Sequence record: PZ379179.1
Reading direction: 5' to 3' (one strand)
From: a phage
DNA length: 39,736 bases
The stretch's first letter is position 1, and every line of letters begins with the position of its first letter. The position numbers and the translations under genes were made by a program. Of this stretch, positions 1 through 39,736 are shown piece after piece. Below the pieces are notes generated by a model, which searched no databases, was not told the origin of the DNA, and worked only from the letters and a program-made list of their open reading frames with translations.

Positions 1-161
1 CCTCAAGTCTCCCCATAGGCCCTCTTTAAGTCAAGACCAAAGGCCCTACCCATAGACCTTCGGTCTAAACTTCAGGTCATTGACTCAAGGTTGACCAAAA
101 GTCATGACGATAGGTCTAGGCTATGGCTTAGGGAAGGACGATAGGTAGGGACTATTGGTCT
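1..161. repeat. Left direct terminal repeat (161 bp)
   Basis: Bases 1-161 are identical to 39576-39736 (CCTCAAGTCTCCCCATAGG...GGGACTATTGGTCT); T7-like genomes carry ~160-bp direct terminal repeats. Confidence 0.9.
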
Positions 162-164
162 GTC

Positions 165-340
165 TTTGAGTCTCTATCTGTATAACCATAAGTCACAACC
201 ATAGGTCACAGCCTACCTCTCACAACCATAAGTCATAACCTACAGTCTCACTAACCTACAGTCTCAACCATAAGACACCAACACCTACAGTCATAGACCT
301 ACAGTTAATAGACACAAGGCTATAGACTTAAGGTCTAAGA
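165..340. repeat. Array of short degenerate direct repeats inside the left end
   Basis: Reiterated units such as AACCATAAGTCA and CCTACAGTC (e.g. 195-310); no coding signal. Comparable to T7 end-proximal short repeats. Confidence 0.5.
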
Positions 341-556
341 CATGTTAGTCAAAGACTATATCCTCTTACACCATGGGGCCGACGATAGCTTAATCAATAT
401 TATTTCGAATTACCTATTGACTATAGGTCCAGACTATGGCCTAATAGCTTCCGTCAACACGACACGGCAACAACCGGATAGTGAAGACGCCGGTCCGGTC
501 CGGTTAAGTAGTCAGCCTGTAAGACATACGAACAACAGGCAACCGACAGAAAGTAG

Positions 557-586
557 TTGACAGGCAGTAACGACTTAAAGTAATAT
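557..586 (+). promoter_or_regulatory. Candidate host sigma70 early promoter (A1-like)
   Basis: TTGACA (557-562), 18-bp spacer, TAATAT (581-586); lies upstream of the first early gene, where T7 has its strong E. coli promoters. Confidence 0.45.
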
Positions 587-736
587 GTACCACATCGAAA
601 CAACGGTGATGACCAACACTGAATGGTCTACCTGAAGTCCTCTGACTGAAGGGAATGCTCTTTAACAATCTGGATAAACTCTTAATGTGCGCCGATAGCG
701 ACTAACTACAGGGCCTTTGAGTCTACATCTGAAGGC

Positions 737-756
737 CCTGACTGATAGTCACTAAC
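737..756 (+). promoter_or_regulatory. Conserved early-region box CCTGACTGATAGTCACTAAC, copy 1
   Basis: 20-nt box also at 1054-1073 and 1782-1801, each preceded by ACTACAGG and 8-29 nt upstream of an early gene start; candidate RNase III processing or regulatory site. Confidence 0.35.
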
Positions 757-772
757 TTAAAGGATGGACACT

Positions 773-1018
773 ATGAAACACTTAAGCACAATCACTAATC
801 GCAATGAAGTATTCGTGAACACTAAAGGTTATGCGTGGATTCAGCTTAAAGAGGTGACAGGAGCGCGTCACCGTGTGGTAGTGCGCAAGGTATCAAGCAA
901 GCAGTTCAGCAACTACAGCGTCGATACTGTGCGTATAGACAACGAGACATACCTGATAGACTCGCAGATAACCGTGAGTCCTACAGTGGGCGTCTCAGCT
1001 CCTTATTTCGCTAACTGA
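773..1018 (+). CDS. Hypothetical early protein, first gene of the genome (81 aa)
   Basis: Track ORF 764..1018; the AGGA overlaps the ATG at 764, so the ATG at 773 (8 nt downstream) is the better start. No recognisable domain. Confidence 0.55.
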   Translation: MKHLSTITNRNEVFVNTKGYAWIQLKEVTGARHRVVVRKVSSKQFSNYSVDTVRIDNETYLIDSQITVSPTVGVSAPYFAN

Positions 1019-1053
1019 GAGTGATTAACTACAGGTCGTTAGACTGATAGCGG

Positions 1054-1073
1054 CCTGACTGATAGTCACTAAC
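1054..1073 (+). promoter_or_regulatory. Conserved early-region box, copy 2
   Basis: Identical 20-mer CCTGACTGATAGTCACTAAC, 29 nt upstream of the Ocr-like gene start. Confidence 0.35.
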
Positions 1074-1101
1074 ACATACTTAACTTTGAGAGGATATAAC
1101 T

Positions 1102-2813: not shown

Positions 2814-2836
2814 ACTTAACTATCACTATAGGACTC
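2814..2836 (+). promoter_or_regulatory. Phage RNAP promoter upstream of the RNAP gene
   Basis: TTAACTATCACTATAGGA matches the genome-wide promoter consensus; predicted +1 G at 2831. Followed by direct repeats AAGTGAAAGAC (x2) before the RNAP start. Confidence 0.6.
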
Positions 2837-2905
2837 AAGGTCTAAGACTCCAAGTGAAAGACCAAAGAGACTTTAAGTGAAAGACTAATAACAAGGACTT
2901 TAAGT

Positions 2906-5587
2906 ATGAGCGTCATCTCTATTGACAAGCACGACTTCTCTGATGTATCGAACGCCATTGAGCCGTTTAACCTACTGGCTGACCACTACGGGCAAGACCT
3001 TGCAGTCAAACAGCTTCAGCTTGAGCACGAGGCATACACTGAAGGCGAGCGACGTTTCATCAAGAACCTTGAGAGACAGACTGAGCGAGGGGAACTGGCA
3101 GACAATCAGGTCGCCAAGCCTTTGATGCAGACTCTGGTCCCTAAGATTGCGCAAGCCGTCAAGGAGTGGCATGAAGGTCCAGACGGGAAGCTGTCAACCT
3201 CTCGTCCGAGCGTAGCGTTCACCATGTTGAGCACTGAAGAGAAGGCCGTAAAGGTCCGCTCTTTGCGCATCTCCTGCGAGTCTGCTGCGGTTATCATACT
3301 GAAGGTCATACTCTCCAAGCTGGTCAAGCCTGAAGGGATACCGATTACACCGATGGCCTCAGCGATAGGTCGCACACTTGAGGACGAAATCCGCTTCGGT
3401 CGCATCCGTGACAAGGAGAAAGAGCACTTCAAGAAGGCGATAGCTGATAACCTGAATAAGCGGGCCGGGGCGTCCTACAAGAAAGCCTACATGCAAGCGG
3501 TCGAGGCATCCATGCTGGAGCAAGGCCAACTGGAAGATGCGTGGGGGACTTGGAGTCCGACCGAGGCTGTCCACGTTGGAATCAAGATGCTGGAGATTGT
3601 CATCCAGTCCACACAACTGGTCGAGCTTAAGCGTTACGGTGCTGGCAATGCAGCGGCTGACGTTGAGATGGTCCACCTGTCAGACTTCTGGGTCAAGAAG
3701 ATGGCACAACGAGGATTCAGCCTTGCGGGTATAGCTCCAGTCTACCAGCCTTGCGTCGTTCCACCTAAGCCGTGGACTGGTGTCGTAGGCGGTGGGTACT
3801 GGGCCAAAGGACGCAGACCATTACCACTGATTCGCTTAGGGTCTAAGTCTGCGGTAGCACGCTACGAAGACGTGTATATGCCTGAAGTCTATGACGCTGT
3901 GAACATCATTCAGAATACACCTTGGAAAGTGAACAAGAAGGTTCTGGAAGTGGTGAACATGGTCGAGAAGCTGAACAACACGCCTATTGATGACATCCCT
4001 CAGATGGAACCGCTGAAGCCTGAGGACTATGCGGGTGAGACTGAAGAAGAACTCAAGGCATGGAAGAAGGCTGCTGCTGGTATCTATCGCCGCGAGAAGG
4101 CCAGACAGTCACGAAGATTGTCACTGAGCTTTATCGTCAACCAAGCGAACAAGTTCTCTCAGTTCAAGGCCATCTGGTTCCCGTATAACATGGACTGGCG
4201 CGGTCGCGTCTACGCTGTGCCGATGTTCAACCCTCAGGGTAACGACATGCAAAAGGGTCTTCTGACTCTGGCAGTCGGTAAGCCTATTGGTGCTGATGGT
4301 TTCAAATGGCTGAAGGTCCACGGTGCAAACTGCGCGGGTGTCGATAAAGTCACCTTCGAGGAGCGTATCAAGTGGGTGGAAGATAACCACGAAAACATCA
4401 TGGCTGCTGCCAAGGCACCGATGGATAGCATTGAGTGGTGGGGCAAGTTAGACTCTCCGTTCTGCTTCCTAGCGTTCTGCTTCGAGTATGCTGGCGTAAT
4501 GCACCACGGCTTGTCTTACTCCTGCTCGCTGCCGATAGCGTTCGATGGGTCCTGCTCTGGGATTCAGCACTTCAGCGCTATGCTTCGCGACCACATCGGT
4601 GGACATGCAGTAAACCTGACGCCATCCGGTAAGGTACAAGACATCTACCGAATTGTGTCTGACCGCATTGAGGAGCAGCTTAAAGTCCTGCTGATTAACG
4701 GTACTGACAACGAGATGGTCACTCACGAGGATAAGAAAACTGGTGAGATTACCGAACGTATCAAGCTGGGGACACGAGAGCTGGCCCGTCAGTGGCTGAC
4801 ATACGGTATGTCACGCAAGGTCACTAAGCGTTCAGTCATGACTCTGGCATACGGGTCGAAAGAGTACGGCTTCGCAGACCAAGTTTACGAGGACATCGTG
4901 ATGCCAGCGATTGACTCAGGGTATGGCGCTATGTTCACCGAGCCAAGCCAAGCGTCTCGATTCATGGCTAAGATGATTTGGGAAGCTGTGAGTGTGACCG
5001 TAGTTGCTGCGGTTGACGCGATGAAGTGGCTTCAAGGTGCTGCCAAGCTGCTGGCTGCTGAAGTGAAGGACAAGAAGACTGGCGAAATCCTGAAGCCATG
5101 CCTTCCGGTACACTGGGTAACACCTGATGGTTTCCCTGTCTGGCAGGAATACCGCAAGAAGGATACCACTCGTCTGAACCTGATGTTCTTAGGGTCATTC
5201 AACCTTCAGCCTACAGTCAACAAAGGAACGAAGAAAGAGCTTGACAAGCACAAGCAGGAGTCAGGCATTAGCCCTAACTTCGTCCACTCACAAGATGGTA
5301 GCCACCTGCGGAAGACTGTAGTCCACACTCACCGCAAGTATGGCGTGATGTCATTCGCAGTGATTCACGATAGCTTCGGGACCATCCCTGCTGACGCTGA
5401 GTATCTGTTCCGTGGTGTCCGTGAGACGATGGTCGAGACATACCGCGATAATGATGTGCTGCTTGACTTCTACGAGCAGTTCGAATACCAGCTTCATGAA
5501 AGTCAGCGCGACAAGTTGCCTGAGCTTCCGAAGAAAGGTAAACTGAATATCGAAGACATCTTGTCTTCAGACTTTGCATTCGCTTAA
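2906..5587 (+). CDS. Single-subunit DNA-directed RNA polymerase (T7 gene 1 homolog)
   Basis: 893 aa; collinear with recalled T7 RNAP, including AFDGSCSGIQHFSAMLRD, VIHDSFGTIPAD and the C-terminal DFAFA. AAGGA RBS 8 nt upstream. Confidence 0.97.
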   Translation: MSVISIDKHDFSDVSNAIEPFNLLADHYGQDLAVKQLQLEHEAYTEGERRFIKNLERQTERGELADNQVAKPLMQTLVPKIAQAVKEWHEGPDGKLSTSRPSVAFTMLSTEEKAVKVRSLRISCESAAVIILKVILSKLVKPEGIPITPMASAIGRTLEDEIRFGRIRDKEKEHFKKAIADNLNKRAGASYKKAYMQAVEASMLEQGQLEDAWGTWSPTEAVHVGIKMLEIVIQSTQLVELKRYGAGNAAADVEMVHLSDFWVKKMAQRGFSLAGIAPVYQPCVVPPKPWTGVVGGGYWAKGRRPLPLIRLGSKSAVARYEDVYMPEVYDAVNIIQNTPWKVNKKVLEVVNMVEKLNNTPIDDIPQMEPLKPEDYAGETEEELKAWKKAAAGIYRREKARQSRRLSLSFIVNQANKFSQFKAIWFPYNMDWRGRVYAVPMFNPQGNDMQKGLLTLAVGKPIGADGFKWLKVHGANCAGVDKVTFEERIKWVEDNHENIMAAAKAPMDSIEWWGKLDSPFCFLAFCFEYAGVMHHGLSYSCSLPIAFDGSCSGIQHFSAMLRDHIGGHAVNLTPSGKVQDIYRIVSDRIEEQLKVLLINGTDNEMVTHEDKKTGEITERIKLGTRELARQWLTYGMSRKVTKRSVMTLAYGSKEYGFADQVYEDIVMPAIDSGYGAMFTEPSQASRFMAKMIWEAVSVTVVAAVDAMKWLQGAAKLLAAEVKDKKTGEILKPCLPVHWVTPDGFPVWQEYRKKDTTRLNLMFLGSFNLQPTVNKGTKKELDKHKQESGISPNFVHSQDGSHLRKTVVHTHRKYGVMSFAVIHDSFGTIPADAEYLFRGVRETMVETYRDNDVLLDFYEQFEYQLHESQRDKLPELPKKGKLNIEDILSSDFAFA

Positions 5588-5602
5588 CAGGAGGAGAAGT
5601 AT

Positions 5603-5833
5603 ATGTCAATGAAACTTGTAGCACACAACAGGACATACAACGATGGGTCGGGACGTTGCCACGTAGAGCTGACTTATAAGGATTTAATCATTCTCCGAGA
5701 CAGATTACAGTCGGGTGTGACTGGGTGGATTCAACCTAACGAGTACAACCTTATAGCTTCGATTGATGAAGTTCTTAACGCGTGGATGGAAGACGAGCGC
5801 ATTCAGTATCCGTCATTCCCTCTAATTAGATAA
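5603..5833 (+). CDS. Hypothetical protein downstream of RNAP (76 aa)
   Basis: ATG with GGAGGAG RBS; no T7 counterpart at this position that I recognise. Confidence 0.55.
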   Translation: MSMKLVAHNRTYNDGSGRCHVELTYKDLIILRDRLQSGVTGWIQPNEYNLIASIDEVLNAWMEDERIQYPSFPLIR

Positions 5834-5843
5834 GGAGAGAGTT

Positions 5844-6059
5844 ATGAAATTTGCACACAAGCATACTGGCGTTAATGGTGGGACTCAAATCGTGACCGTA
5901 ACAGAACACAACGGCAAGGGTCTGGTGAAGACCACGGTCATCCCTACCGAGATGTCCAAGCAGCTTAACATCCCGTTCAAGACTCTTGTATATCTGGTCG
6001 AGTCCAGCCACGAGAAGTACCTGAAGGACGCAGTGTCCAAGCTGGAGCAGGCCAAATGA
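5844..6059 (+). CDS. Hypothetical protein (71 aa)
   Basis: ATG with AAGGAGA RBS; phage-typical codon usage. Confidence 0.55.
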   Translation: MKFAHKHTGVNGGTQIVTVTEHNGKGLVKTTVIPTEMSKQLNIPFKTLVYLVESSHEKYLKDAVSKLEQAK

Positions 6060-6124
6060 CAGACATACAGTTACTGGCCCTGTGGCTGGGAGCACTCGCA
6101 GTATTCACTTTAATCCAACGCAGA

Positions 6125-6147
6125 AGAGGTTAACCCTAAACTATCAC
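6125..6147 (+). promoter_or_regulatory. Phage RNAP promoter (phi1.1-like)
   Basis: CCTAAACTATCACTATAGGA; predicted +1 G at 6142. Confidence 0.7.
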
Positions 6148-6200
6148 TATAGGATTAGACTCAAGGTCATGACTCAAAGTCGTGGCCTTCATGATTAACC
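6144..6200 (+). ncRNA. Candidate RNase III processing hairpin (R1.1-like)
   Basis: GATTAGACTCAAGGTCATGACTCAAAGTCGTGGCCTTCATGATTAACC; related copies at 13375-13417 and 36131-36171. Resembles the T7 R1.1 site as I recall it (ACTCAAGGTCATTCGCAAGAGTGGCCTTTATGATTGACC). Confidence 0.45.
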
Positions 6201-6230
6201 CTAAATAAACACTACTGGAGATTTAACCGT

Positions 6231-6410
6231 ATGTATCAGAACACTATCAACTTCGAGCGCATCCGCGAACGTCAGCAGACTGAAGGTTACATCCCTAAGG
6301 GCCGCAAGCTGAACAAGACTAAACGTGGAGGAGGTATCAAAGGTGCTTTCCGTAACGCTGAAGGTAAAGACTCTATGGTTAACCAAGAGAAATACTTCGT
6401 AGGAGCATAA
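6231..6410 (+). CDS. Gene 1.1-like small basic protein (59 aa)
   Basis: GRKLNKTKR matches recalled T7 gp1.1; below the track size cut-off, found by manual translation. Confidence 0.65.
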   Translation: MYQNTINFERIRERQQTEGYIPKGRKLNKTKRGGGIKGAFRNAEGKDSMVNQEKYFVGA

Positions 6411-6414
6411 CCAA

Positions 6415-6678
6415 ATGGGCCGACTTTATAGTGGCAACCTCAACGATTTCAAAGCAGCGTGTCACAGGCTTTATCAGTTAGACTTCGCTGTCATATCTCA
6501 GGAGTTTCAAGACTATACGTCACGCCAAGAGTGTATGAAACTCAGGGTGGAGGACCGAGCTGGTAACATCTTCGCGCTTGAGACCTTCGCACACTACGAT
6601 GAAGACGTGCTGTATAATACCGCAACCGACTACCTCAACGGTCTCGCTGACCATCTCGACACATGGAGAAAAGAATAA
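6415..6678 (+). CDS. Gene 1.2-like inhibitor of host dGTPase (87 aa)
   Basis: MGRLYSGNLNDFKAA...LRVEDRAGN...HYDEDVLYN closely matches recalled T7 gp1.2 (MGRLYSGNLAAFKAA...LRIEDRSGN...HHDEDVLFN). AGGAG RBS. Confidence 0.85.
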   Translation: MGRLYSGNLNDFKAACHRLYQLDFAVISQEFQDYTSRQECMKLRVEDRAGNIFALETFAHYDEDVLYNTATDYLNGLADHLDTWRKE

Positions 6679-7706
6679 TGACAACTATCAAAACTAACCC
6701 TCACCGCGCTGTAGATTACTCTGAGTCTGGAATTAAGAAGGCACTGGAAGCAGCCGGGTCTCTGGAAGCTGAAGTGAAGTACGATGGTGTGCGCCTGAAC
6801 CTCCTGGTCCTGCGTGAAGGTGAGACCTACTGGCTTAGCCGCGAGTCGAAACCTCTACCAGCCTTGGAGTGGATGAACTCTGAGTTAGGTAATGCGTGGA
6901 CCCAAGCTGACTGGCGATGGTTCCTGCGTCAATCCGGCTACGAAGGTGTGGGCATGATGATTGATGGCGAGGTCATGGTCAAAGGTGTAGACTTCAACAC
7001 CTCCTCAGGTCTCATCCGAACGAAGTGGCTCAAGCCTAACAACGAGGAGTTCGCTGAATACTATTCGCCGGCGACTGGTGGAAAGAAGCTCCCGTTCTGG
7101 GGATCCCGGTCACGACTTCAGGTTGTGGTCTACGGTGTCATTGACATGACAACCATTGCTGACCCGAAAGCCGAAGGTCCTATCCATAGCGTAACCCGCC
7201 TGAAGGCCGAAGCTATCGTCCCTCTTCTCCAGAAATACTTCCCGGAAATCGACTGGGTTCTGTCTGAGAGTCATACAGTGTTCAACCTTGAGTCTCTTCG
7301 TGATTTGTACGAGGAGAAGCGAGCAGATGGACATGAAGGTCTGGTAGTCAAGGACCCACTGGGCAAATACAAGCGTGGTAAGAAGTCTGGTATGTGGAAG
7401 ATGAAGCCGAGTGAAGAGGCAGATGGTCACGTTGTTCGCCCGGTGTGGGGAACAGAAGGCCTAGCCAACGAAGGCATGGTCATCGGCTTTGACGTTATGC
7501 TCGAGAACGGGATGGAGGTCTCCGCAACTAACATTAGTCGCGCCCTTATGTCCGAGTTCACGGAGAACGTTAAGTCAGACCCTGACTACTACAAAGGGTG
7601 GGCTTGCCAGATTACCTACATGGAGGAGACACCAGATGGCTCATTGCGACACCCCTCGTTCTACCAGTGGCGTGGAACTGAGGATAATCCTACAGTCAAG
7701 ATTTAA
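6678..7706 (+). CDS. ATP-dependent DNA ligase (T7 gene 1.3 homolog)
   Basis: Adenylation motif KYDGVR; MTTIKTNP...SYWLSRESK...HEGLVVKDP...KRGKKSGMWKMKP...WACQITYMEETPDGSLRHPSF collinear with T7 ligase. Track ORF begins at 6663; the ATG at 6678 overlaps the gene 1.2 stop. Confidence 0.93.
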   Translation: MTTIKTNPHRAVDYSESGIKKALEAAGSLEAEVKYDGVRLNLLVLREGETYWLSRESKPLPALEWMNSELGNAWTQADWRWFLRQSGYEGVGMMIDGEVMVKGVDFNTSSGLIRTKWLKPNNEEFAEYYSPATGGKKLPFWGSRSRLQVVVYGVIDMTTIADPKAEGPIHSVTRLKAEAIVPLLQKYFPEIDWVLSESHTVFNLESLRDLYEEKRADGHEGLVVKDPLGKYKRGKKSGMWKMKPSEEADGHVVRPVWGTEGLANEGMVIGFDVMLENGMEVSATNISRALMSEFTENVKSDPDYYKGWACQITYMEETPDGSLRHPSFYQWRGTEDNPTVKI

Positions 7707-7707
7707 A

Positions 7708-8118
7708 GTGGACGAAAGGTCGGCCTCCGGGCTGGCACTCCACTCTGGACGAAAGGTAGGAAGTAAGAAGAAGTCCGGCTATTGGACGATAAACGTCAGG
7801 ACACCGTGGGGCCGAAAGCATCTACAGGTTCATAGGGTAATATGGGAGATGACACACGGTCCCATACCAGACGGCATGGAGATTGACCACATTGACCGGA
7901 ACCCTTCTAATAACAGGCTGTCCAACCTGCGACTGGTGACTCACTCCGAGAACAACCAGAACAAAGGACAGATGTCCACCAACACTACCGGAGAACGTCA
8001 CATCTCAAAGGTGAAAGGTCGAGAGCTTTACTGTATCAAGAAGGTGGTCAACGGAGAGCGCTTGGTCCTATATGCCAAGACCATAGCCGAGGCAGTAGCC
8101 TTAAGAGATTCATTATAA
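7708..8118 (+). CDS. HNH homing-type endonuclease (copy A)
   Basis: HNH core [46 protein letters not shown]. The track ORF starts inside the ligase gene; alignment with the paralog at 36668 puts the N-terminus at GTG 7708, directly after the ligase stop. No in-frame ATG is available. Confidence 0.7.
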   Translation: MDERSASGLALHSGRKVGSKKKSGYWTINVRTPWGRKHLQVHRVIWEMTHGPIPDGMEIDHIDRNPSNNRLSNLRLVTHSENNQNKGQMSTNTTGERHISKVKGRELYCIKKVVNGERLVLYAKTIAEAVALRDSL

Positions 8119-8123
8119 TGTCA

Positions 8124-8156
8124 ACCCAGTGGTCTTATGACTGCTGGGTTTCTTTG
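8124..8156 (+). terminator. Rho-independent terminator (TE-like early terminator)
   Basis: ACCCAGTGG-loop-CTGCTGGGT hairpin followed by TTTCTTTGCG, resembling the T7 TE tail TTTCTGCG; sits after the ligase/HNH unit. Confidence 0.6.
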
Positions 8157-8177
8157 CGTACGGGCCACCAGCTAGAC

Positions 8178-8200
8178 CCTAAGCTATCACTATAGGACAA
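8178..8200 (+). promoter_or_regulatory. Phage RNAP promoter
   Basis: CCTAAGCTATCACTATAGGACAA; predicted +1 G at 8195. Confidence 0.65.
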
Positions 8201-8226
8201 CCCTAACCGACCAAAGGAGAAACCTT

Positions 8227-8481
8227 ATGTCTAAAAACTTAATGTTCAACCGATTTACTCGAAGCTTCCACCTGTCGCATAGCCCATTCAGCTTCCATAA
8301 ATCTAATCAACCATTACCCCGCTTTGGTAAGACAGTGGCTCTGTCTCCCACAGTTCATGCGCTAGTCACCCGCAAGTCTATGCTGAAGGCTATGGATAAA
8401 GAACAAGTCGATGTACCTGTTGTCGTTACAAAATGGCCTCGCATTAAGCTGGCCCTTCTGGTAATTAAGGAGGTGTTTTGA
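8227..8481 (+). CDS. Hypothetical protein (84 aa), gene 1.6 position
   Basis: ATG with GGAG RBS 7 nt upstream; no recognisable domain. Confidence 0.5.
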   Translation: MSKNLMFNRFTRSFHLSHSPFSFHKSNQPLPRFGKTVALSPTVHALVTRKSMLKAMDKEQVDVPVVVTKWPRIKLALLVIKEVF

Positions 8482-8819: not shown

Positions 8820-8901
8820 GTGGTGTGAAATGATGTTCGAGAAGACAGGTAACACTGACTACCTTGAATTGTATAACCAGTGGAAGGAGCGCGGTTTATG
8901 A
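8806..8901 (+). CDS. Small ORF (31 aa), gene 1.8 position
   Basis: ATG 8806, stop overlapping the gp2 start; [31 protein letters not shown]. Short and without homology support. Confidence 0.3.
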
Positions 8902-17995: not shown

Positions 17996-17999
17996 GACA

Positions 18000-29392: not shown

Positions 29393-29396
29393 CATA

Positions 29397-32300: not shown

Positions 32301-33284
32301 AACGGTACGACCAACTACCTGTTAGATGCTGGACGTCAAGGCTTCCTGTCTGACATCGTGGAGCACAGCCTGACTGGTAGTAAGCGTAAGTTCGATGACC
32401 GCTGGCTGAAGACCGCTGGTATCTCTGACGAGCAGTGGAAGGGCATTAAGTCCCTAATCCGTGAGTCAGTGACTCGTGGTCCAGACGGGAAGTACACCAT
32501 CAAGGATAAGAAGGCGTTCAGTCAGGACCCAAGGGCTATGGACCTGTGGCGTATGGGTGACACCATCGCTGACGAAACGTTACTCCGGCCCCACAAGCTG
32601 TCAAACATGGACGCCAAGGCTTATGGTCCTCTCGCTAAGACTGTCCTTCAGTTTAAGAACTTCGTCATCAAGTCTATCAATGGGAGAACCATGCGAACCT
32701 TCTATAACGCCACGAAGAACAACAGAGCGATTGACGCTGCACTGTCGACCGTGATGTCTATGGGTCTGGCTGGTATCTACTACATGGCTCAGGCGCATGT
32801 CAAGGCTTATGCTATGCAGGATGGTCGAGACCGTGACTACCTTAAGCAAGCTCTGGACCCAACGATGATTGGCTATGCGGTCCTGTCCCGTAGTTCACAT
32901 CTTGGTGGCCCACTTGGGGTAGCTAACATTCTGGGGGGCATCGCTGGGTATGAGGACACTAAGATGCTCCGTTCGTCTATCCTACCTCGTTCGCCTACAG
33001 AGAAGCCTGAGCGTGCCATCGCGTATGGTGCAGCTACAAGTGACCCTGTGATGAATGTTGTTGGTAACTTCTTGGAGCAGGTTCCAGCTTTCGGATATGC
33101 TGCTAACGTTGGCGCTTCGGCTTACAACTTGGCTGGCTACCTCAAGGCTGATACTCGTGTCAACGAGCGTGACTACATGACCGGGATGTATAATACGTTC
33201 CGTGAACTGGTTCCGAACGACCCAATTACCCAGAAGCTGCTGCTTGGAACGTTTGAGGAGCAAGGCATCCACATCAAGGACTAA
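29397..33284 (+). CDS. Internal virion protein D (T7 gp16 homolog) with divergent N-terminal domain
   Basis: 1295 aa; from about residue 200 collinear with T7 gp16 (TWFGFGSATEAE, RWN.H.W..EELD.IR, GVDPLTYVP, MRLEARETARN, SPTGMQSGASGK, GTYVPHVY, NNSFLEARNLFDSD). The first ~130 aa (MATRGIRNNNPGNIR...) do not resemble the T7 lytic-transglycosylase N-terminus as I recall it. Confidence 0.93.
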   Translation: MATRGIRNNNPGNIRVSKDQWEGMTGDDGAFVTFDSPESGVRALGKNLLSYGRQGYDSIEKIINRWAPPNENDTKAYIDSVVAATGIPATQSLDLSNPDTLSSLAQAISFHETGSRYNPEVYQKGVERALNGISPKTPPVSANVFDALTEGLKAKPKVALGENLPTAAGLNIEGQAPEAPNESFGEMFYKSTGETMQEREDRSTWFGFGSATEAEVKNSMVGVAIRAGQTEDSLDVIGDVFNPTRWNNHKWSREELDQIRNAGVLPQYYGVITGGSPQNLTELINLALENQKLDQEKAKAGTGAQLAAGVIGAGVDPLTYVPIAGQVGKGAKLVNKMFAVAAQSGALAGVSEMARTSVAGGDDHVAEAILGGALFGAGMTTIADGLGRALGRNTNEFAGPATRLEARETARNVDGQDLSRLPIQEGEQTFSHQGVKFADVQNEPGSVRLEDGSILIGENPLNPKTRQVFDEVIEPERAAAGVNLGGLTEIGLKLLRSENPEIRGVAADLVRSPTGMQSGASGKIGTTASDVFERLRAVDHRFYNDIDDAVTEALKDPYFQTAFWRDSGAFRQDIYQRVSMAIEDGSGNLKAELTPGELKVYDLLKNQFDAKREMMENPAMFGRPDAKSIFPGSRFKGTYVPHVYSNQMKELYIKELGRPEALQEAIKKSWLTSYASRPEVKKRVDEALLEADPTLTPEGLAAAVDKYANDKAYGISHTEQFERSSIMEENINGLVGLENNSFLEARNLFDSDMSIVLPNGQTFSVNNLREWDMDKIVPAYNRRVNGDIAIMAGTGKTTKDMKDLVETLMNKAGDDGKLKGEVSTLRGTLKILTGRARRDGADDAAFATVMRTMTDLSFFAKNAYMGVQNLTEIGGMLARGNVRAMLHGVPIFRDLAFRNKKVGASEIKDLHNVIFGKELDDSIRPSKQDVIDRLRSYSDLGRGTATALGTAKYYTGELAVRSPFTKVLNGTTNYLLDAGRQGFLSDIVEHSLTGSKRKFDDRWLKTAGISDEQWKGIKSLIRESVTRGPDGKYTIKDKKAFSQDPRAMDLWRMGDTIADETLLRPHKLSNMDAKAYGPLAKTVLQFKNFVIKSINGRTMRTFYNATKNNRAIDAALSTVMSMGLAGIYYMAQAHVKAYAMQDGRDRDYLKQALDPTMIGYAVLSRSSHLGGPLGVANILGGIAGYEDTKMLRSSILPRSPTEKPERAIAYGAATSDPVMNVVGNFLEQVPAFGYAANVGASAYNLAGYLKADTRVNERDYMTGMYNTFRELVPNDPITQKLLLGTFEEQGIHIKD

Positions 33285-33302
33285 ACTATCACTATAGGAA
33301 AC
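33280..33302 (+). promoter_or_regulatory. Phage RNAP promoter (phi17-like)
   Basis: ACTAAACTATCACTATAGGAAAC; the gp16 stop TAA is embedded in the promoter. Confidence 0.7.
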
Positions 33303-33348
33303 GGGAGGCGCTACCATAGGTCTCCCTTTAAATCACAAAGGAGGCATA

Positions 33349-35529
33349 ATGTCCACGATTACACAATTCCCTTCAGGAAACACTCAGTACAGGATTGAGT
33401 TCGACTACCTAGCCAGAACGTTTGTTGTTGTTACGCTGGTGAATAGCTCTAACCCTACCCTGAACCGTGTACTGGAAGTTGGTCGAGATTACCGATTCCT
33501 TAATCCAACGATGATTGAGATGTTGGCTGACCAATCAGGTTTCGACATCGTTCGTATTCACCGTCAGACTGGAACTGACTTAGTGGTAGACTTCAGGAAT
33601 GGCTCAGTGTTGACGGCTAGTGACCTGACAAATTCAGAGCTTCAGGCTATCCATATTGCAGAAGAAGGTCGAGACCAAACGGTTGACTTAGCGAAGGAAT
33701 ATGCCGATGCTGCTGGTAGCTCTGCTGGCAACGCTAAGGATAGCGAGGACGAAGCACGCCGAATCGCTGCGAGTATCAAGGCAGCTGGTAAAATTGGCTA
33801 TATTACCCGTCGCTCCTTCGAGAAAGGCTTCAACGTTACAACATGGAACGAGGTCCTGCTATGGGAAGAGGATGGTGATTATTACCGCTGGGATGGTACA
33901 CTTCCAAAGAACGTTCCCGCTGGTTCAACTCCTGAATCATCTGGTGGTATTGGGCTGAGTGCGTGGGTTAGTGTTGGGGATGCGTCACTTAGAGCAAACC
34001 TGTCTGATAGTGATGGCGCTAAATACATAGGCAGTGGAGAAAGGACATTACTTGAGCACAGCAATGATGTTTTGCACTCAAAAGACTTTCCAACACTGCA
34101 GGCAGCTATAGATGCATCTTTGCAAAAAAATGATCTACTGGTGTCTCCTGGCAATTATACTGAAAAAGTTACTATTGGAAACGCGCAGTTAAAAGGTGTT
34201 GGCGGGGCCGCGGTACTAAAAACTCCGGCAGACTTTACAAACACTGTTCAGGTTAATTTAGCTACACCTCATTGGCAATTCCGCCATAGTGGTGGTTTTG
34301 CTATAGATGGTTCCGGGACAACCGGAGCCGTAGGTATTAGTTTTGACCCGTCAGACCAATATTCCGGACGTCATAATTTTAGTGATGTATACATCCACAA
34401 CATCAACAAGGCCCTTCAGAAGCCTTCCGGGAACATCGGCAATACTTGGAGAAATATTGGGATATCTACGTGTGATTGGGGGTATTACGCGATTAGTGGC
34501 TCAGAGACGCATTGCGGGGCCGATACCCTCTACAATATCCACTTCGATGGCATCTCCACCTATGCAGTCTATCTAGACGGCACTGTCGATAATGGCGGGG
34601 TGGGCGCATGGTGGCTTAAAGACTCCATTATTGAGGCTTCCGGAGGTGGCGGGATATACTTAAAAAGTAAATCGGGCGACTGTCCTACATCTCCATGCGG
34701 GGTATCCAATATATGGATGGAAGCTATCGCAACATCACCGGCTGTTCAGGTAGACGGCGTGGCGCAAAAACCGCGAGTTCTCAAGTTGGTAGACACAGCG
34801 ATATTCTTTGCTGAGTATTCTTATCTCAACAACATCGAGCTATCCAACTCCAACTTAGTAACTTATGGTTGCCGTTTTGACAACGCTGATGGCAATCAGG
34901 ATATTGTCGTGGATGCACAAAGTACCATTGTAGCCCATGACGTGTATTTAAACGGCAGTTCTGGAAAGGACGTTATTGTGGAGTCCGTAGCATCGCAATC
35001 TGCAACGATAGCTGCCACAAACTTATCTCTGAGGGGCAACTTAACAAGAGGGAGAGTATTTAATACGCCGACAGGGAATAAATTAATGGCTATCACATTT
35101 GACTCAGGTAGCCATTATTTTTCTGGCAGCGGCACCGTTAACGGTTCGACTGTATCTGACGGACTTCACTCCGCTACATGTACCGAATTTTCATTCCCCG
35201 GAGCCGGTTTATATGAAATGGGAGCGACAAGAACAGCCATTACATCCGGTAGATGGTACGTGTGGGGAGTTAACTCACGCCTACAATCTGGCTCGGCGGA
35301 TATTAGTATAACGTCAGGTATTACCATGGGTAGTGTTTACACAAAGCCGGGGGAGTGGATTAGCACTTTCGGTGTAGGAAAGGCATCTACCACTGGCACT
35401 GTAGCGCTATACGTTTCCACAGGAGGAGGTTCGGGAGCTACGGTCAGATTCAGTGACTTTTTCATCGCTGAGTTTACGACGCAAGCTCAGGCTTTAGCTT
35501 TCGCCAATTCAAGGATGTCGTTATCATAA
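33349..35529 (+). CDS. Tail fibre / tailspike: T7 gp17-like N-terminal anchor fused to a beta-helix (depolymerase-like) C-terminal domain
   Basis: 726 aa; N-terminus (EFDYLARTFVVVTLVN, DYRF, LVVDFRNGSVLTASDL, AIHIAEEGRDQTV) matches the T7 gp17 tail-attachment domain. From about nt 34000 codon usage becomes AT-rich and the protein shows Gly/Asn/Ser-rich repeats typical of right-handed beta-helix tailspikes. Confidence 0.9.
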   Translation: MSTITQFPSGNTQYRIEFDYLARTFVVVTLVNSSNPTLNRVLEVGRDYRFLNPTMIEMLADQSGFDIVRIHRQTGTDLVVDFRNGSVLTASDLTNSELQAIHIAEEGRDQTVDLAKEYADAAGSSAGNAKDSEDEARRIAASIKAAGKIGYITRRSFEKGFNVTTWNEVLLWEEDGDYYRWDGTLPKNVPAGSTPESSGGIGLSAWVSVGDASLRANLSDSDGAKYIGSGERTLLEHSNDVLHSKDFPTLQAAIDASLQKNDLLVSPGNYTEKVTIGNAQLKGVGGAAVLKTPADFTNTVQVNLATPHWQFRHSGGFAIDGSGTTGAVGISFDPSDQYSGRHNFSDVYIHNINKALQKPSGNIGNTWRNIGISTCDWGYYAISGSETHCGADTLYNIHFDGISTYAVYLDGTVDNGGVGAWWLKDSIIEASGGGGIYLKSKSGDCPTSPCGVSNIWMEAIATSPAVQVDGVAQKPRVLKLVDTAIFFAEYSYLNNIELSNSNLVTYGCRFDNADGNQDIVVDAQSTIVAHDVYLNGSSGKDVIVESVASQSATIAATNLSLRGNLTRGRVFNTPTGNKLMAITFDSGSHYFSGSGTVNGSTVSDGLHSATCTEFSFPGAGLYEMGATRTAITSGRWYVWGVNSRLQSGSADISITSGITMGSVYTKPGEWISTFGVGKASTTGTVALYVSTGGGSGATVRFSDFFIAEFTTQAQALAFANSRMSLS

Positions 35530-35673
35530 AAACAACCTCAGCCGAATCGGGTTATTTATCATCAGAACGGTATTGAATCATCGAAGGTTGTGGAGGTAGA
35601 GGCTAACTACACGTTGACCAACGTATGATAACAACTTTGGGTCACGGACGACCCGCTTTAAACTGGAGGTTTT

Positions 35674-35868
35674 ATGATTGAGTTAGACTTCAAGAATGAG
35701 GTCCTCAAAGCCTCGCCTATCGTCGGGACCGCTGCGGCTGATGGTGCCAGTCGGTTCTTCTTTGGGCTAACGCTCAACGAATGGTTCTACGTCGCTGCTA
35801 TCGCGTACACCGTGGTGCAGATTGGCGTCCTAATTTACAAGACGATTAAGAGCGGAGGTAAGACATGA
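35674..35868 (+). CDS. Class II holin (T7 gp17.5 homolog)
   Basis: 64 aa; FFGLTLNEWFYVAAIAYTVVQIG matches T7 holin FFGLSLNEWFYVAAIAYTVVQIG. Confidence 0.9.
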   Translation: MIELDFKNEVLKASPIVGTAAADGASRFFFGLTLNEWFYVAAIAYTVVQIGVLIYKTIKSGGKT

Positions 35869-36128
35869 CGCAGATGGACTTAGAGAAGTTCCTGTTAATG
35901 CTGGACACAGAACGTGCTAGACTAATGCTGCAAGACCTGCGGGATGACTCTAAGCGTTCGCCCCAGCTCTACAACGCCATTGAGAAGCTACTGGCTCGTC
36001 ACAACTTCGTGCTAAGCAAGGTGTCTGTTGACGAGAAGACGCTCGCTGATATGGAGGCCCTGAACGCAGAGTACGATAAGGTGCTCTCCGCTACGGAAGA
36101 TAATGACACAGGGTATGGTGTTCAATAA
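35865..36128 (+). CDS. Terminase small subunit / DNA maturation protein A (gp18-like)
   Basis: 87 aa ORF between holin and spanin with overlapping start; assigned by position and size. Confidence 0.65.
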   Translation: MTQMDLEKFLLMLDTERARLMLQDLRDDSKRSPQLYNAIEKLLARHNFVLSKVSVDEKTLADMEALNAEYDKVLSATEDNDTGYGVQ

Positions 36129-36130
36129 GT

Positions 36131-36171
36131 GTTAGACTCAAGGTCATCGTCAGGTGGCCTTTATGGTTAAC
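36131..36171 (+). ncRNA. Candidate RNase III processing hairpin (R18.5-like)
   Basis: GTTAGACTCAAGGTCATCGTCAGGTGGCCTTTATGGTTAAC, the third copy of the element at 6144 and 13375; at the position of T7 R18.5. Confidence 0.45.
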
Positions 36172-36224
36172 ACTAACTAGTGGAGGAGACTCTACGTGAA
36201 ATCTGATAAACCGGGAGGGCAACT

Positions 36225-36671
36225 ATGCTCGAATTTTTAAAGAGAGCGGCTCCGTGGTTACTTTCAGCAGTGATATTTGCTGGTGGCTACCACACCGCTA
36301 ACAATAAGTGGGAGGCTAAGGTCAATGCAGAATACACCTCGAATCTTAAGGCATCGGAGGATACAAGACTTGCTGTCCAAGCTGAAGTCAACAAAGTGTC
36401 CAAACGGTTTCAGGACGAAATGTCCTCGCTGGAAGGCAGCACTGATAGGATTATTGCTGACCTTCAGTCTGACAATAAGCGGTTGCGCATCCGAGTCAAA
36501 CCTACGAGTGGAACCACGCAAAGTGACGGTCGATGCGTCATTGATGGTTACGCCGAACTTGACGAACGAGATGCTAAACGTCTTATCGCCATCGGAGTGA
36601 AAGGAGACAAATGGATTAAGGCGCTTCAGGACACTGTGAGAGCCTTGCAGCAAGATAAGGAGGCCCAATGA
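36225..36671 (+). CDS. i-spanin, Rz-like (T7 gp18.5 homolog)
   Basis: 148 aa; MLEFLKRAAPWLL...LEGSTDRIIADLQSDNKRLRIRVK...LDERDAKRLIA...GDKWIKALQDTVRALQ matches T7 gp18.5; N-terminal TM segment. Confidence 0.9.
   Translation: MLEFLKRAAPWLLSAVIFAGGYHTANNKWEAKVNAEYTSNLKASEDTRLAVQAEVNKVSKRFQDEMSSLEGSTDRIIADLQSDNKRLRIRVKPTSGTTQSDGRCVIDGYAELDERDAKRLIAIGVKGDKWIKALQDTVRALQQDKEAQ
36325..36600 (+). CDS. o-spanin, Rz1-like lipoprotein embedded in the +1 frame of the i-spanin gene
   Basis: Track ORF 36277..36600 in an alternative frame inside gp18.5; contains a lipobox-like LTISGC after a hydrophobic stretch LIGLLLTFS. Start uncertain (first ATG at 36325). Confidence 0.45.
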   Translation: MQNTPRILRHRRIQDLLSKLKSTKCPNGFRTKCPRWKAALIGLLLTFSLTISGCASESNLRVEPRKVTVDASLMVTPNLTNEMLNVLSPSE

Positions 36672-37108
36672 TGCTCAGTGATTCGTATGTCTATGATGAG
36701 TCCAGTAAGTCTGGCCTGAAGTCCCTGCGTTCTGGTAAGGACGTGGGGTGTGTGGGAAACCACGGGTATTATCAGGTAGGAACTCGACGTCATGGACTCC
36801 TACTGGCCCATAGAGTCGTCTGGGAACTAACCCACGGTCCTATACCAGAAGGTATGGAGATTGACCATATTGACCGCTGCCGGACTAACAACAGGCTGGA
36901 CAACCTCCGGCTAGTTACTTCAAGCGAGAACTCCTGCAACACCTCAGGACATTCTGACTCAAAGACTGGAGTTAAGAACATATCGTTCCATCAGAATGGC
37001 TACGCTATCGAGGTCATGCGTAAGGGAGTCCGTATGCGAACAACACGTCCTACTTTAGAGGAGGCTATCTCTGTCCGGGACCTAATGCTGGAGGGACTCT
37101 ATGTCTAA
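36668..37108 (+). CDS. HNH homing-type endonuclease (copy B, paralog of 7708..8118)
   Basis: 146 aa; [13 protein letters not shown]...[41 protein letters not shown], about 60% identical to copy A across the core. Overlaps the gp18.5 stop and the terminase start. Confidence 0.8.
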
Positions 37109-38867
37109 GAAAACACCTGCTGAAAGACAGGCTGAAATGACCCAAAGGATGAGGGACGACTTCGTGTTCTTCATCTTCGTTCTCTGGAAAGCTCTTAGCC
37201 TTCCGGTTCCAACCCGCTGCCAGATAGATATGTGTAAGAAGCTGGCTGCTGGGGATAATCGCCGCTTCATCCTTCAGGCTTTCCGTGGTATTGGTAAGTC
37301 GTTTCTGACCTGTGGTTTCGTGGTCTGGAAGCTATGGAACAACCCAGACTTGAAGTTCATGATTGTGTCGGCCTCAAAGGAACGAGCTGATGCTAACTCC
37401 ATCTTCATCAAGCGAATCATCGACCTCATGCCTCAGCTTCAGGAACTCAAACCTAAGCAGGGACAGCGAGATGCGGTTATCAGCTTCGACGTTGGTCCCG
37501 CCAAGCCAGACCACTCACCTTCGGTTAAGTCCGTTGGTATCACTGGTCAGTTGACTGGTAGTCGTGCTGACATCCTGATTGCTGATGACGTGGAGGTTCC
37601 GAACAACTCAGCGACTCAGGCTGCCCGGGACCGTCTGTCAGAGCTTGTGAAAGAGTTCGACGCTATCCTGAAGCCTGGAGGTACAATCATCTATCTGGGT
37701 ACTCCTCAGAACGAGATGACCCTATACCGTGAGCTGGAAGGTCGTGGGTACACCACTACTATCTGGCCCGCTCGTTATCCACGCGACAGGAAGGACTGGC
37801 AGTCTTACGGCGACCGTCTGGCTCCTATGCTTCAGGCAGAGCTGGAAGAGGACCCTGAGTCCTTCTACTGGCGTCCGACTGATGAAGTACGCTTCGATGA
37901 TACGGACCTGAAGGAACGTGAGCTGTCCTACGGTAAAGCTGGCTTCGCTCTACAGTTCATGCTTAACCCTAACCTGAGTGATGCCGAGAAGTACCCTCTG
38001 AAGCTCCGTGACCTTATCGTAGCAGACTTGGACCCAGCGTCTAGCCCAATGGTCTACCAATGGCTTCCTAACCCTCAGAACAAGCGTGAGGACGTTCCTA
38101 ACGTTGGACTCATGGGTGACTCGTACCACACGTATCAGACTGTAGGCTCTGCCTTCAGCGCGTACACTCAGAAGATTCTGGTCATTGACCCTAGTGGTCG
38201 TGGTAAGGATGAGACTGGCTACGCTGTTCTGTACCAGCTCAACGGCTACATCTTCGTGATGGAAGCTGGTGGTATGCGCGGTGGGTATGAGGACTCTACG
38301 CTGGAAGCACTGGCTAAGATTGGTCGTAAGTGGAAGGTCAACGAATACGTCATTGAGGGTAACTTCGGTGATGGTATGTACCTTGAGCTATTCAAGCCTG
38401 TAGCGGCCCGTATACATCCTGCTGCTGTAACTGAAGTGAAGAGTAAGGGTCAGAAAGAACTCCGCATCTGTGACGTTCTGGAGCCTATCATGGGGTCTCA
38501 CCGACTTATCGTCAACGCTGCTGCTATCGTCCAAGACTACCAGTCGGCCTCTGATAAGGATGGTGTTCGTAACCCTATCTACTCTCTCTTCTACCAGATG
38601 ACACGTATCTCTCGTGAACGTGGAGCCTTGGCACACGATGACAGACTTGATGCTCTGGCTATCGGTGTACAGTTCTTCGTTGAGTCTATGGCTAAGGATG
38701 CCAACAAAGGCGAACGTGAAGTCACTGAGGAGTGGCTGGAGGAACAGATGGAGAACCCACGGAAAGGCTTCGAGTCCATCCACACTGAGTTCTGGGACAA
38801 TGGGGTCCGGGTGACTCACGATACGGACGACGAGCTGGGACTAGGGTCCTACGTTACGTTCCACTAG
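37101..38867 (+). CDS. Terminase large subunit / DNA maturation protein B (T7 gene 19 homolog)
   Basis: 588 aa; Walker A-like [10 protein letters not shown], ATPase and nuclease regions; position and size match T7 gp19. GGAGGGA RBS. Confidence 0.95.
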
Positions 38868-38961
38868 CTGAATGAATAACTATAGGCGAAAACTGAGTTA
38901 ATAAGCAGTTAGTAACCTATAGTTACTACCAGTCTAACCTACTGTTTTACAAGGAGTTTGG

Positions 38962-38984
38962 ACTTAACTATCACTATAGGGAAG
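38962..38984 (+). promoter_or_regulatory. Phage RNAP promoter near the right end (phiOR-like)
   Basis: CTTAACTATCACTATAGGGAAGA; flanked by degenerate promoter-like palindromes (AACTATAGGCG, AACCTATAGTTACT, TATTACTATAGTGAAT). Confidence 0.7.
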
Positions 38985-39163
38985 ACCCCCGGTTACTTAT
39001 AGTATTACTATAGTGAATATACATATGCAGACTTTATGCAAGACCTTAGGAGGCAGACTCCGAGTTCTTACCTAAGGCTTGCACCGATGGGAGGAGGTGA
39101 TATTAATCATAATACCTCCAATACAGATAGTCACAGACCATAGATACAGGAGGTATGTAGCAT

Positions 39164-39322
39164 ATGGCAAAGACCAAAGCTGTACTTAAAGCTCTGGCGA
39201 CCAATCGAGCTACATACAGGTTTCTTGCTGCTGTTCTACTTGCTGCTGGCGCTACTACTGGAAGTCAGTGGGTCGGGTGGGTCGAGACTCTCGTATGTTC
39301 TCTGGTGTCTGAGTGTCGTTAA
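39164..39322 (+). CDS. gp19.5-like small protein (52 aa)
   Basis: ATG with GGAGG 10 nt upstream; MAKTKAVLKALATNRATYRFLAAVLLAAGATTGSQWVGWVETLVCSLVSECR. Last ORF before the right terminal repeat, as T7 gene 19.5. Below the track size cut-off. Confidence 0.45.
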   Translation: MAKTKAVLKALATNRATYRFLAAVLLAAGATTGSQWVGWVETLVCSLVSECR

Positions 39323-39352
39323 CGCCGTAATGGTAACAATCAACGAAAGCAA

Positions 39353-39397
39353 GACCTAAGGTCAGTTCATAGCTGACGCTACTCTACTGACCTTAGC
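39353..39397. repeat. Inverted repeat / hairpin (10-bp stem) downstream of the last gene
   Basis: CCTAAGGTCAG (39355-39365) pairs with CTGACCTTAG (39387-39396) around a 21-nt loop; no U-tract follows, so it is not a classic terminator. Confidence 0.4.
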
Positions 39398-39439
39398 TAC
39401 TGTAGTCAAGGACTTTAGGTAACACCTTAATAGAAGCTC

Positions 39440-39575
39440 ACTTAGGGTCATCCTACTTATTGGTCTATCCTAGTGTCGCCTGACCTACGGTCCTTGACCT
39501 ACAGTGGCTGTGGCCTACAGTAGTGACGATGAGTTTTGGACCAAAAGTTTGAGACCACATCTCACAGTTCAAGAA
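39440..39575. repeat. Short degenerate direct repeats inside the right end
   Basis: Reiterated CCTACAGT / CCTACGGT / GACCTAC units (e.g. 39481-39535), mirroring the array at the left end. Confidence 0.45.
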
Positions 39576-39736
39576 CCTCAAGTCTCCCCATAGGCCCTCT
39601 TTAAGTCAAGACCAAAGGCCCTACCCATAGACCTTCGGTCTAAACTTCAGGTCATTGACTCAAGGTTGACCAAAAGTCATGACGATAGGTCTAGGCTATG
39701 GCTTAGGGAAGGACGATAGGTAGGGACTATTGGTCT
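39576..39736. repeat. Right direct terminal repeat (161 bp)
   Basis: Identical to bases 1-161. Confidence 0.9.

Follow-up and report, generated by a model that had tools for sequence, protein, structure and literature searches.

The DNA analysed here (sequence record PZ379179.1, 39,736 bp, G+C = 50.0%; the whole stretch is called the window below) is very probably the near-complete linear genome of a virulent, K1F-like podophage of the genus Kayfunavirus. Its terminal repeat of about 190 bp appears trimmed in the record, and the T7 genes that it lacks are commonly lacking in the relatives examined. Comparison with known phages shows an ordinary K1F/LM33_P1-type relative of T7, with its closest relatives in the LM33_P1 species.

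To place the window, both of its halves were searched by megablast against 50,697 phage records. The two halves matched 913 and 749 records, respectively, hundreds of which were Studiervirinae. The best matches were all Kayfunavirus (LM33_P1, vB_EcoP-101136BS1, 101118UKE1, 22664BS1, and phage 6925), and the top records, from the LM33P1 species, were about 96% identical across 92 to 97% of the query, none reaching 99%. ICTV criteria unite phages in a genus at a genome-wide nucleotide similarity above about 70% and in a species at 95% or more. By our own VIRIDIC-like calculation, an approximate re-implementation and not VIRIDIC itself, the window is 92.8% similar to 101136BS1, 92.5% to LM33_P1, 81.6% to K1F, and 28.4% to T7. 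By these estimates, K1F and both LM33_P1-species phages lie within the genus range, the latter two fall just under the 95% line of the species Kayfunavirus LM33P1, and T7 is far below the level expected for Teseptimavirus, the genus of T7 proper. The window phage is thus a Kayfunavirus, and it is "T7-like" only at the level of the subfamily. A preliminary description made from the letters alone had called it a complete T7-like phage genome. The genome is indeed near complete and belongs to the Studiervirinae; however, it is a Kayfunavirus only about 28% similar to T7, its ends are probably trimmed, and its gene 2.5 is frameshifted.

The gene map was compared by tblastn of 56 T7 proteins against the window with a cutoff of E ≤ 0.01. 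The matches rise monotonically along the window from gp0.3 (1150) to gp19.3 (38278), and the sole matches out of order are those of the T7 HNH proteins gp2.8, gp3.8, and gp7.7, which fall on three HNH_3 genes at other positions. While gp7 was too diverged for tblastn and was recovered at the PHROG profile level only, gp19.5 was recovered through NCBIfam. Every plus strand open reading frame (ORF) tested has a PHROG, Pfam, NCBIfam, or T7 protein match, whereas the eight long minus strand ORFs tested (120–184 aa) have no PHROG match and all lie antisense inside large plus strand genes. The early, DNA metabolism, virion, and packaging genes therefore follow one another on one strand in T7 order, as the preliminary description had proposed for the order from Ocr to gp19.5 and for the strand of every credible gene. 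The gene-content comparison that it had suggested found the window collinear with T7. Moreover, the window encodes a single-subunit RNA polymerase (RNAP) of the T7 group (Autographiviridae / Studiervirinae) at 2906-5587 and carries a conserved set of phage-RNAP promoters. The consensus CTAAACTATCACTATAGGRA has 11 matches, all on the plus strand and in the direction of transcription, against a chance expectation of 0. These promoters precede genes 1, 1.1, 1.6, 2.5, 4, 6.5, 9, 10, 13, and 17 and occupy the phiOR position; their core is present at equivalent sites in K1F, LM33_P1, and 101136BS1 but not in T7.

One gene in the genome is broken. Gene 2.5 encodes the single-stranded DNA-binding protein (SSB), which is essential in T7, and in the window it is split by a 1-nt deletion into two tblastn segments in different frames. 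Alignment with LM33_P1 and 101136BS1 places the deletion where the relatives have CCCACC (AACCCACCTCAG) and the window has CCCCC at 9336-9340 (AACCCCCTCAG). Most likely, this deletion is a sequencing or assembly error, so that the deposited sequence probably carries a mistake in a gene essential in T7. We regard it as improbable that the frameshift is genuine, with full-length SSB made by −1 slippage on the C5 run or with the isolate being a defective variant. The deletion does create the CCCCC run, and a −1 shift at this site restores the exact wild-type peptide, as AAC CCC CUC would be read as AAC CCC and then CCU CAG to give the wild-type ...EKNPPQVQ... sequence. However, the variant is unique: the frameshifted 25-mer occurs in 0 IMG/VR contigs, compared with 17 for the intact version. 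All relatives have an intact gene, no other gene of this genome is broken, and the loss of one base beside a homopolymer is a common kind of sequencing error.

The first and last 161 nt of the window are identical, as had been described; the longest prefix equal to a suffix is exactly 161 nt, and it also appears as family D2 in a repeat scan. The preliminary description took this identity for 161-bp direct terminal repeats. A terminal repeat as such is probable, but its length is very probably not 161 bp, since homology to K1F, SH3, and SH4 predicts about 190 bp. In a linear record, prefix–suffix identity stops at the ends of the record and not at a point of sequence divergence. As the left copy has no sequence before it and the right copy none after it, 161 marks where the record was cut rather than where the repeat ends.

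The letters flanking the two copies are more informative. The 16 nt before the right copy (TCTCACAGTTCAAGAA) are identical to the starts of K1F, SH3, and SH4. Similarly, the left copy aligns from K1F position 17 and with the SH3 and SH4 repeats, and many Kayfunavirus records begin 16 to 17 nt upstream of window position 1. Directly behind the left copy, 13 nt (GTCTTTGAGTCTC) match the K1F/SH3/SH4 repeat ends and are followed by TATCTGT (together 162-181), the conserved (T)ATCTGT that is also found in T7; the T7 left end likewise begins TCTCACAG, and its repeat is followed by ATCTGT. The K1F repeat of 178 nt starts with TCTCACAGTTCAAGAACCTCAAG, ends with GAGTCTC, and shares its first 23 nt with the repeats of SH3 and SH4. 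For these two Citrobacter phages, run-off sequencing of virion DNA located the ends and gave repeats of 183 and 190 bp, with K1F cited as 179 bp (PMC4925675); their records (KU687349 and KU687350) annotate repeats of 184 and 191 nt. When the 16-nt, 161-nt, and 13-nt blocks (a, b, and c) of the window are assembled into one 190-nt unit, this unit aligns end to end with the SH4 repeat, including an extra block of about 13 nt that is missing in K1F. SH3 and SH4 differ from the window phage in species and host and were compared over their first 300 nt only. Because both flanks match the repeat ends of these phages, the physical repeat is predicted to be about 190 bp long, probably with TCTCACAG (39560) at its start, the 161 nt in its middle, and GAGTCTC (174) at its end, as in SH4. 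The record would then lack 16 nt at its left end and about 13 nt at its right end. Such a b-c-unique-a-b layout would be expected from a circularized assembly that was opened at an underestimated double-coverage region, which was then appended. A short terminal repeat of the T7-group type is predicted for the virion DNA; what the window itself shows is the 161-nt end identity and the K1F/SH3/SH4 terminus motifs.

It is improbable that the physical repeat truly measures 161 bp with the virion ends at the window ends, in which case the terminase would cut 16 nt inside the left cleavage site of K1F, SH3, and SH4 and 13 nt short of their right one. The record as given has exactly this structure, and repeat lengths vary in the genus (165 annotated in GA2A, 178 in K1F, 183-184 in SH3, and 190-191 in SH4). 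However, the conserved left terminus stands intact just before the right copy, the conserved repeat end stands just after the left copy, and even the shorter annotated repeat of GA2A begins at (A)TCTCACAG. Furthermore, a prefix–suffix length limited by the record stop carries no information on the true boundaries. Much less probable still is a pure assembly artefact of a circular or concatemeric template in a phage without a fixed terminal repeat: the 161-nt boundaries coincide with no conserved terminus and the layout resembles a reopened circular contig, but experiments on relatives have located direct terminal repeats at this very locus, and the window contains the conserved start and end motifs as well as T7-type gp18/gp19 terminase genes. 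We therefore retain a trimmed repeat of about 190 bp as the probable reading. The general lesson is that prefix–suffix identity in a record does not give the length of a terminal repeat; here, some 16 and 13 nt were probably trimmed. No terminal repeat is visible in either the LM33_P1 or the 101136BS1 record. Just inside the repeat (184..293, plus strand), short imperfect direct repeats (AACCATAAGTCACAACC / CCTACAGTC) form an array (families D9, D13, and D16), and PE3-1 has a longer array of short repeats at this place.

Several T7 genes have no counterpart in the window. By tblastn (E ≤ 0.01), no match was found there for gp0.7, 4.3, 4.5, 4.7, or 5.9, nor for T7 0.4, 0.5, 0.6, 1.4, 1.5, 4.1, 5.3, or 6.3. 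The spacing of the remaining genes agrees with this result. The 1.3 kb between the Ocr stop (1605) and the start of gene 1 (2906) hold only four small ORFs (50–108 aa), and no kinase-domain protein comparable to the T7 gp0.7 kinase/shut-off protein lies between genes 0.3 and 1. Only 240 bp with one 54-aa ORF separate the stop of gene 4 (13195) from the start of gene 5 (13436), and no 4.3/4.5/4.7 block is found there. That ORF, orf54, was considered as T7 gp4.3 and rejected, as there is no similarity and the "gp4.3" label in PE3-1 is only positional. The best-supported start of gene 6 (16407) falls before gene 5.7 has ended (stop 16410), which leaves no space for 5.9, and no small acidic ORF resembling the T7 RecBCD inhibitor gp5.9 occurs between 5.7 and 6.

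The same absences were then sought in five Kayfunavirus genomes, of which K1F, LM33_P1, 101136BS1, and PE3-1 span all the regions concerned and Escherichia phage JSS1 covers an early-region slice only. There was no match for gp0.7, 4.5, 4.7, or 5.9 in LM33_P1, K1F, 101136BS1, or PE3-1, and gp4.3 had no match in LM33_P1, K1F, or PE3-1 and a weak one in 101136BS1. The early slice of JSS1 is also without 0.7. The annotations of K1F and PE3-1 agree with the absence of gp0.7, 4.3/4.5/4.7, and 5.9. Accordingly, the lack of these genes is a trait common to the K1F-like phages examined and not a loss peculiar to the window phage; it has been visible in the K1F record since 2005 and is hence not new. 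The preliminary description had listed T7 anti-host genes as absent or replaced, which tblastn and spacing bear out for 0.7, 4.3-4.7, and 5.9, but nothing about this is special to the present phage. A loss or replacement of these genes specifically in the window phage as a host adaptation is extremely unlikely, for although the genes are indeed absent, 0.7, 4.5, 4.7, and 5.9 are also absent from the four full genomes and 0.7 from the JSS1 slice, 4.3 is absent from all but 101136BS1, and the flanking genes are 93 to 100% identical to those of LM33_P1 with equal spacing. As a possible case of a Kayfunavirus with a kinase, we considered the kinase "JSS1_004" (mBio 2025), whose phage was studied on Salmonella Cerro 87; the record of Escherichia phage JSS1 shows no early ORF of kinase size, and we make no claim that a kinase exists in any Kayfunavirus. 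A recent description presents the T7 kinase as a broad anti-defence factor (PMC13645617), and given this role, its shared absence in the K1F-like phages examined is worth remembering.

Some points weigh against this overall interpretation. With gene 2.5 frameshifted, the sequence as given encodes no viable T7-type phage unless the frameshift is an error or is bypassed. The predicted repeat of about 190 bp and the true termini rest on homology, and the repeat ends differ by 1 to 6 nt among K1F, SH3, and SH4. In addition, the shared absence of T7 genes draws on only five Kayfunavirus genomes, and the gene content of K1F was taken from its GenBank annotation. The features discussed here and below are collected in Table 1.

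Table 1 Positions of genes, signals, and repeats in the 39,736-nt window
Feature	Position	Strand	Remarks
Left copy of terminal identity	1..161	+	Exact match to 39576-39736; would be positions 17-177 of the predicted ~190-nt repeat
GTCTTTGAGTCTC, predicted last 13 nt of true repeat	162..174	+	Aligns with end of K1F 178-nt repeat and with SH4 repeat end
Best sigma-70-like promoter, TTGACA-18-TAATAT	557..586	+	Consensus match only; candidate host-RNAP early promoter
Three related hairpins with internal loop	696-754, 1016-1074, 1750-1798	+	Family D11; folds z = -4.3, -3.3, -2.1
Gene 0.3, Ocr-like DNA mimic, 167 aa	1102..1605	+	Pfam PF08684 E=7e-28; phrog_2568
Four small early ORFs, 50-108 aa	1602-1754, 1809-2045, ~2279-2482, 2482-2808	+	Place of T7 genes 0.4-0.7
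Eleven phage-RNAP promoters, consensus CTAAACTATCACTATAGGRA	starts 2815, 6136, 8179, 9053, 11423, 17401, 20239, 21224, 26005, 33281, 38963 (span 2815..38982)	+	
Gene 1, single-subunit RNA polymerase, 893 aa	2906..5587	+	63% identity to T7 gp1, full length; 99% to K1F, LM33_P1
Gene 1.3, DNA ligase	6663..7706	+	51% identity to T7, 94% to K1F
HNH-a homing endonuclease, probable GTG start	7708..8118	+	Pfam HNH_3 E=6e-24
Gene 2.5, ssDNA-binding protein, split	9115..9809 as 9115-9453 + 9387-9809	+	1-nt deletion; two tblastn segments, different frames
Lambdoid-prophage-derived segment, ~400 bp	10942..11362	+	Replaces 146 bp of native sequence
orf87, 87 aa	10955-11218	+	In prophage-derived segment
Chimeric orf65	11229-11426	+	41 N-terminal prophage codons, then 24 native gp3.7 codons
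Gene 4, primase/helicase	11495-13195	+	Homology to T7 and relatives
orf54	13207-13371	+	phrog_13039
Gene 5, DNA polymerase	13436-15607	+	Homology to T7 and relatives
HNH-b	15639-15920	+	HNH_3, directly after DNA polymerase gene
gp5.5-like	15920-16204	+	PHROG profile level only, too diverged for tblastn
gp5.7	16201-16410	+	Homology to T7
Gene 6, exonuclease	16407-17273	+	GTG start 16407 best supported, GGAGGA ribosome-binding site upstream
Virion module, genes 6.5, 6.7, 7, 7.3, 8-17 (8, 9, 10, 11, 12, 13, 14, 15, 16, 17)	17484..35529	+	T7 order
T-phi-like terminator, 17-bp hairpin then U6 run	22663..22700	+	Downstream of capsid gene 10; -25.2 kcal/mol, z = -3.2
ASCH/DUF3850 ORF, 75 aa	23385..23612	+	Pfam PF12961 E=1.9e-19; between tail genes 11 and 12
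Gene 17 tail fibre/spike, 726 aa	33349..35529	+	phrog_27367 over full length
Holin 17.5	35674-35868	+	
gp18	35865-36128	+	
Rz 18.5	36225-36671	+	
HNH-c	36668-37108	+	HNH_3, between genes 18.5 and 19
gp19 terminase	37101-38867	+	
gp19.5	39164-39322	+	NCBIfam NF040465 E=1.6e-19; missed by tblastn
TCTCACAGTTCAAGAA, predicted first 16 nt of true repeat = predicted physical left end	39560..39575	+	Identical to K1F, SH3, SH4 starts
Right copy of terminal identity	39576..39736	+	Exact match to 1-161

The only mildly novel element of the genome lies between genes 3.5 and 4, where a segment (10942-11362) matches, at 96.4% identity, prophage DNA that 1519 of 5426 complete E. coli genomes (28%) carry. 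In one of these genomes, the surrounding DNA is a lambdoid prophage: an ead/Ea22-like gene is the neighbour, cIII-kil-erf and an anti-RecBCD gene lie on the upstream side, and the xis-like torI lies on the downstream side. No phage record covers at least 80% of a 701-nt query spanning the segment, no Kayfunavirus record has a counterpart, the segment is absent from every other T7-group record searched, and the prophage junction does not occur in IMG/VR. The left junction falls in a Shine-Dalgarno sequence (AAGGAGA), and the right junction falls in a 14- to 17-nt stretch that codes for ASLEA in both parents, which generates the in-frame chimera orf65. Because the ribosome-binding site is intact and the fusion is in frame, we would argue for a real recombinant rather than an assembly chimera. 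The orf87 product shares up to 99% identity with E. coli "hypothetical proteins" of a family found across Enterobacterales, and its confidently predicted fold appears to have no known structural relative, being unlike any solved structure. We propose, tentatively and as one possibility that is rather unlikely to hold in full, that the cassette is a recent, genuine capture of a lambdoid "ea"-region accessory gene by a strictly virulent T7-group phage via recombination at very short homologies. The cassette would be a small, clean example of temperate-to-virulent gene flow. Should orf87 have a function in lytic growth, for example in anti-defence or host takeover in a lineage without gp0.7, gp4.5, and gp5.9, it would be a natural instance of virulent phages drawing on the prophage accessory pool.

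The three HNH genes differ in their distribution. HNH-a follows the ligase gene inside an insertion (7521-8115) relative to LM33_P1 and 101136BS1, and its site is also occupied in RDN8.1 and TH16 at 85 to 86% identity. HNH-b is 99% identical to that of 101136BS1 and only 65% identical to that of LM33_P1. HNH-c lies inside an insertion (36664-37157) relative to LM33_P1 and 101136BS1, at a site occupied at 95 to 98% identity in SR04, Zappy, and several MZ2340xx phages, and it shares a 132-nt stretch with HNH-a at 75% identity (family D4). The ligase gene itself is a mosaic; its protein is 94% identical to that of K1F and 81% to those of LM33_P1 and 101136BS1, while the genes on either side are most similar to LM33_P1. 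The breakpoint at about 7520 borders on the HNH-a insertion, a position that co-conversion by a homing endonuclease would predict. Another length difference affects the gene between endonuclease I and lysozyme (10258-10485), which encodes 75 aa versus about 163 aa in LM33_P1, 101136BS1, and K1F, with about 283 bp missing. The short form matches the full-length, 74-aa PHROG phrog_15211 and thus occurs in other phages. The ASCH/DUF3850 ORF is present in LM33_P1, where it is called an "RNA-binding protein," and in 101136BS1, and it is absent from K1F and T7.

Gene 0.3, which lies among the first early genes ahead of gene 1, encodes a protein that scores 97.5 bits against PF08684 (cutoff of 25). 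It is 59% identical to T7 Ocr over residues 17 to 90 (tblastn) and has a C-terminal extension, reaching 167 aa versus 117 aa in T7. Its family membership points to a putative anti-restriction activity like that of Ocr. The four early ORFs that follow (1602-2808) matched no Pfam or NCBIfam domain, no kinase, and only PHROGs of unknown function. Sigma-70 and terminator scans of the window were not enriched over shuffled sequence, and from these scans we report only the best promoter and the T-phi hairpin. The three early hairpins stand just upstream of orf84, the Ocr gene, and orf78, respectively. By analogy with T7 early mRNA, whose RNase III processing sites look similar, they may be sites of this kind. 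No tRNAs or Rfam families were found in the window.

A good copy of the phage-RNAP promoter (2815-2834) is present just upstream of the RNAP gene, where T7 has none. It is kept in K1F, LM33_P1, 101136BS1, and PE3-1, although the PE3-1 annotators called it a host promoter, and it would let the RNAP gene be transcribed by its own product. The LM33_P1 record (NC_031937) splits the RNAP into two coding sequences, 2925-4892 and 4920-5606 (span 2925-5606), whereas the window and K1F each have one intact gene of 893 aa; the split is probably an error in that reference record.

The tail fibre gp17 is T7-like over its N-terminal 120 aa or so and of the LM33_P1 type in the remainder. It is 98% identical to LM33_P1 gp17 in amino acid sequence over 100% of that protein, and only its N-terminal 31% aligns to K1F. 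The strain on which LM33_P1 was isolated, LM33, belongs to the ST131-O25b:H4 clonal complex (PMC5434335). Because the two tail fibres are 98% identical, we predict that the window phage has the receptor specificity and host type of LM33_P1.

A putative infection cycle can be outlined from T7 biology. The left end would enter the cell first, and the host RNAP would start at the early promoter, with 557-586 as the best candidate, and transcribe the left ~6 kb, which includes Ocr, the small early ORFs, and the phage RNAP gene. The early mRNA may then be cut at the RNase III-like hairpins, and the phage RNAP would transcribe the remaining genes from its 11 promoters. In T7, gp2, gp5.5, gp5.7, and gp1.2 act on host RNA polymerase, H-NS, and dGTPase. 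Homologues of gp2, gp5.5 (gp5.5-like), gp5.7, and gp1.2 are present in the window and could mediate host takeover. Replication by gp1.3, gp2.5, gp3, gp4, gp5, and gp6 would produce concatemers joined through the terminal repeat, which the gp18/gp19 terminase would cut, duplicating the repeat during packaging. Host recognition would fall to the tail fibre, which is 98% identical to the LM33_P1 fibre.

As a genome, the window adds little beyond one more LM33_P1/K1F-type coliphage, with practical interest only for phage therapy collections. Compared with LM33_P1 (NC_031937) and 101136BS1 (MZ234024), most of its proteins are 95 to 100% identical and its promoters are alike. However, only the window has the two extra HNH genes, the prophage-derived segment, and the frameshift in gene 2.5, and it also differs in the K1F-like 3′ end of the ligase gene and in the gene between 3 and 3.5, which is about 283 bp shorter. 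K1F (NC_007456), the type of the genus, resembles the window in gene order, absent genes, and promoter core. In contrast, K1F is without orf78, orf76, the ASCH ORF, and orf68, all of which are present in the window; it carries an HNH gene inside its DNA polymerase gene, which in the window is uninterrupted by HNH; and its tail spike is an endosialidase, unlike the gp17 of the window. T7 (NC_001604) shares with the window a collinear map, the single-subunit RNAP, Ocr, gp1.2, gp2, gp5.7, the replication and virion genes, and gp19.5, whereas its promoter consensus is a different one, its HNH genes lie at other positions, and its tail fibre is unrelated beyond the N-terminal adaptor.

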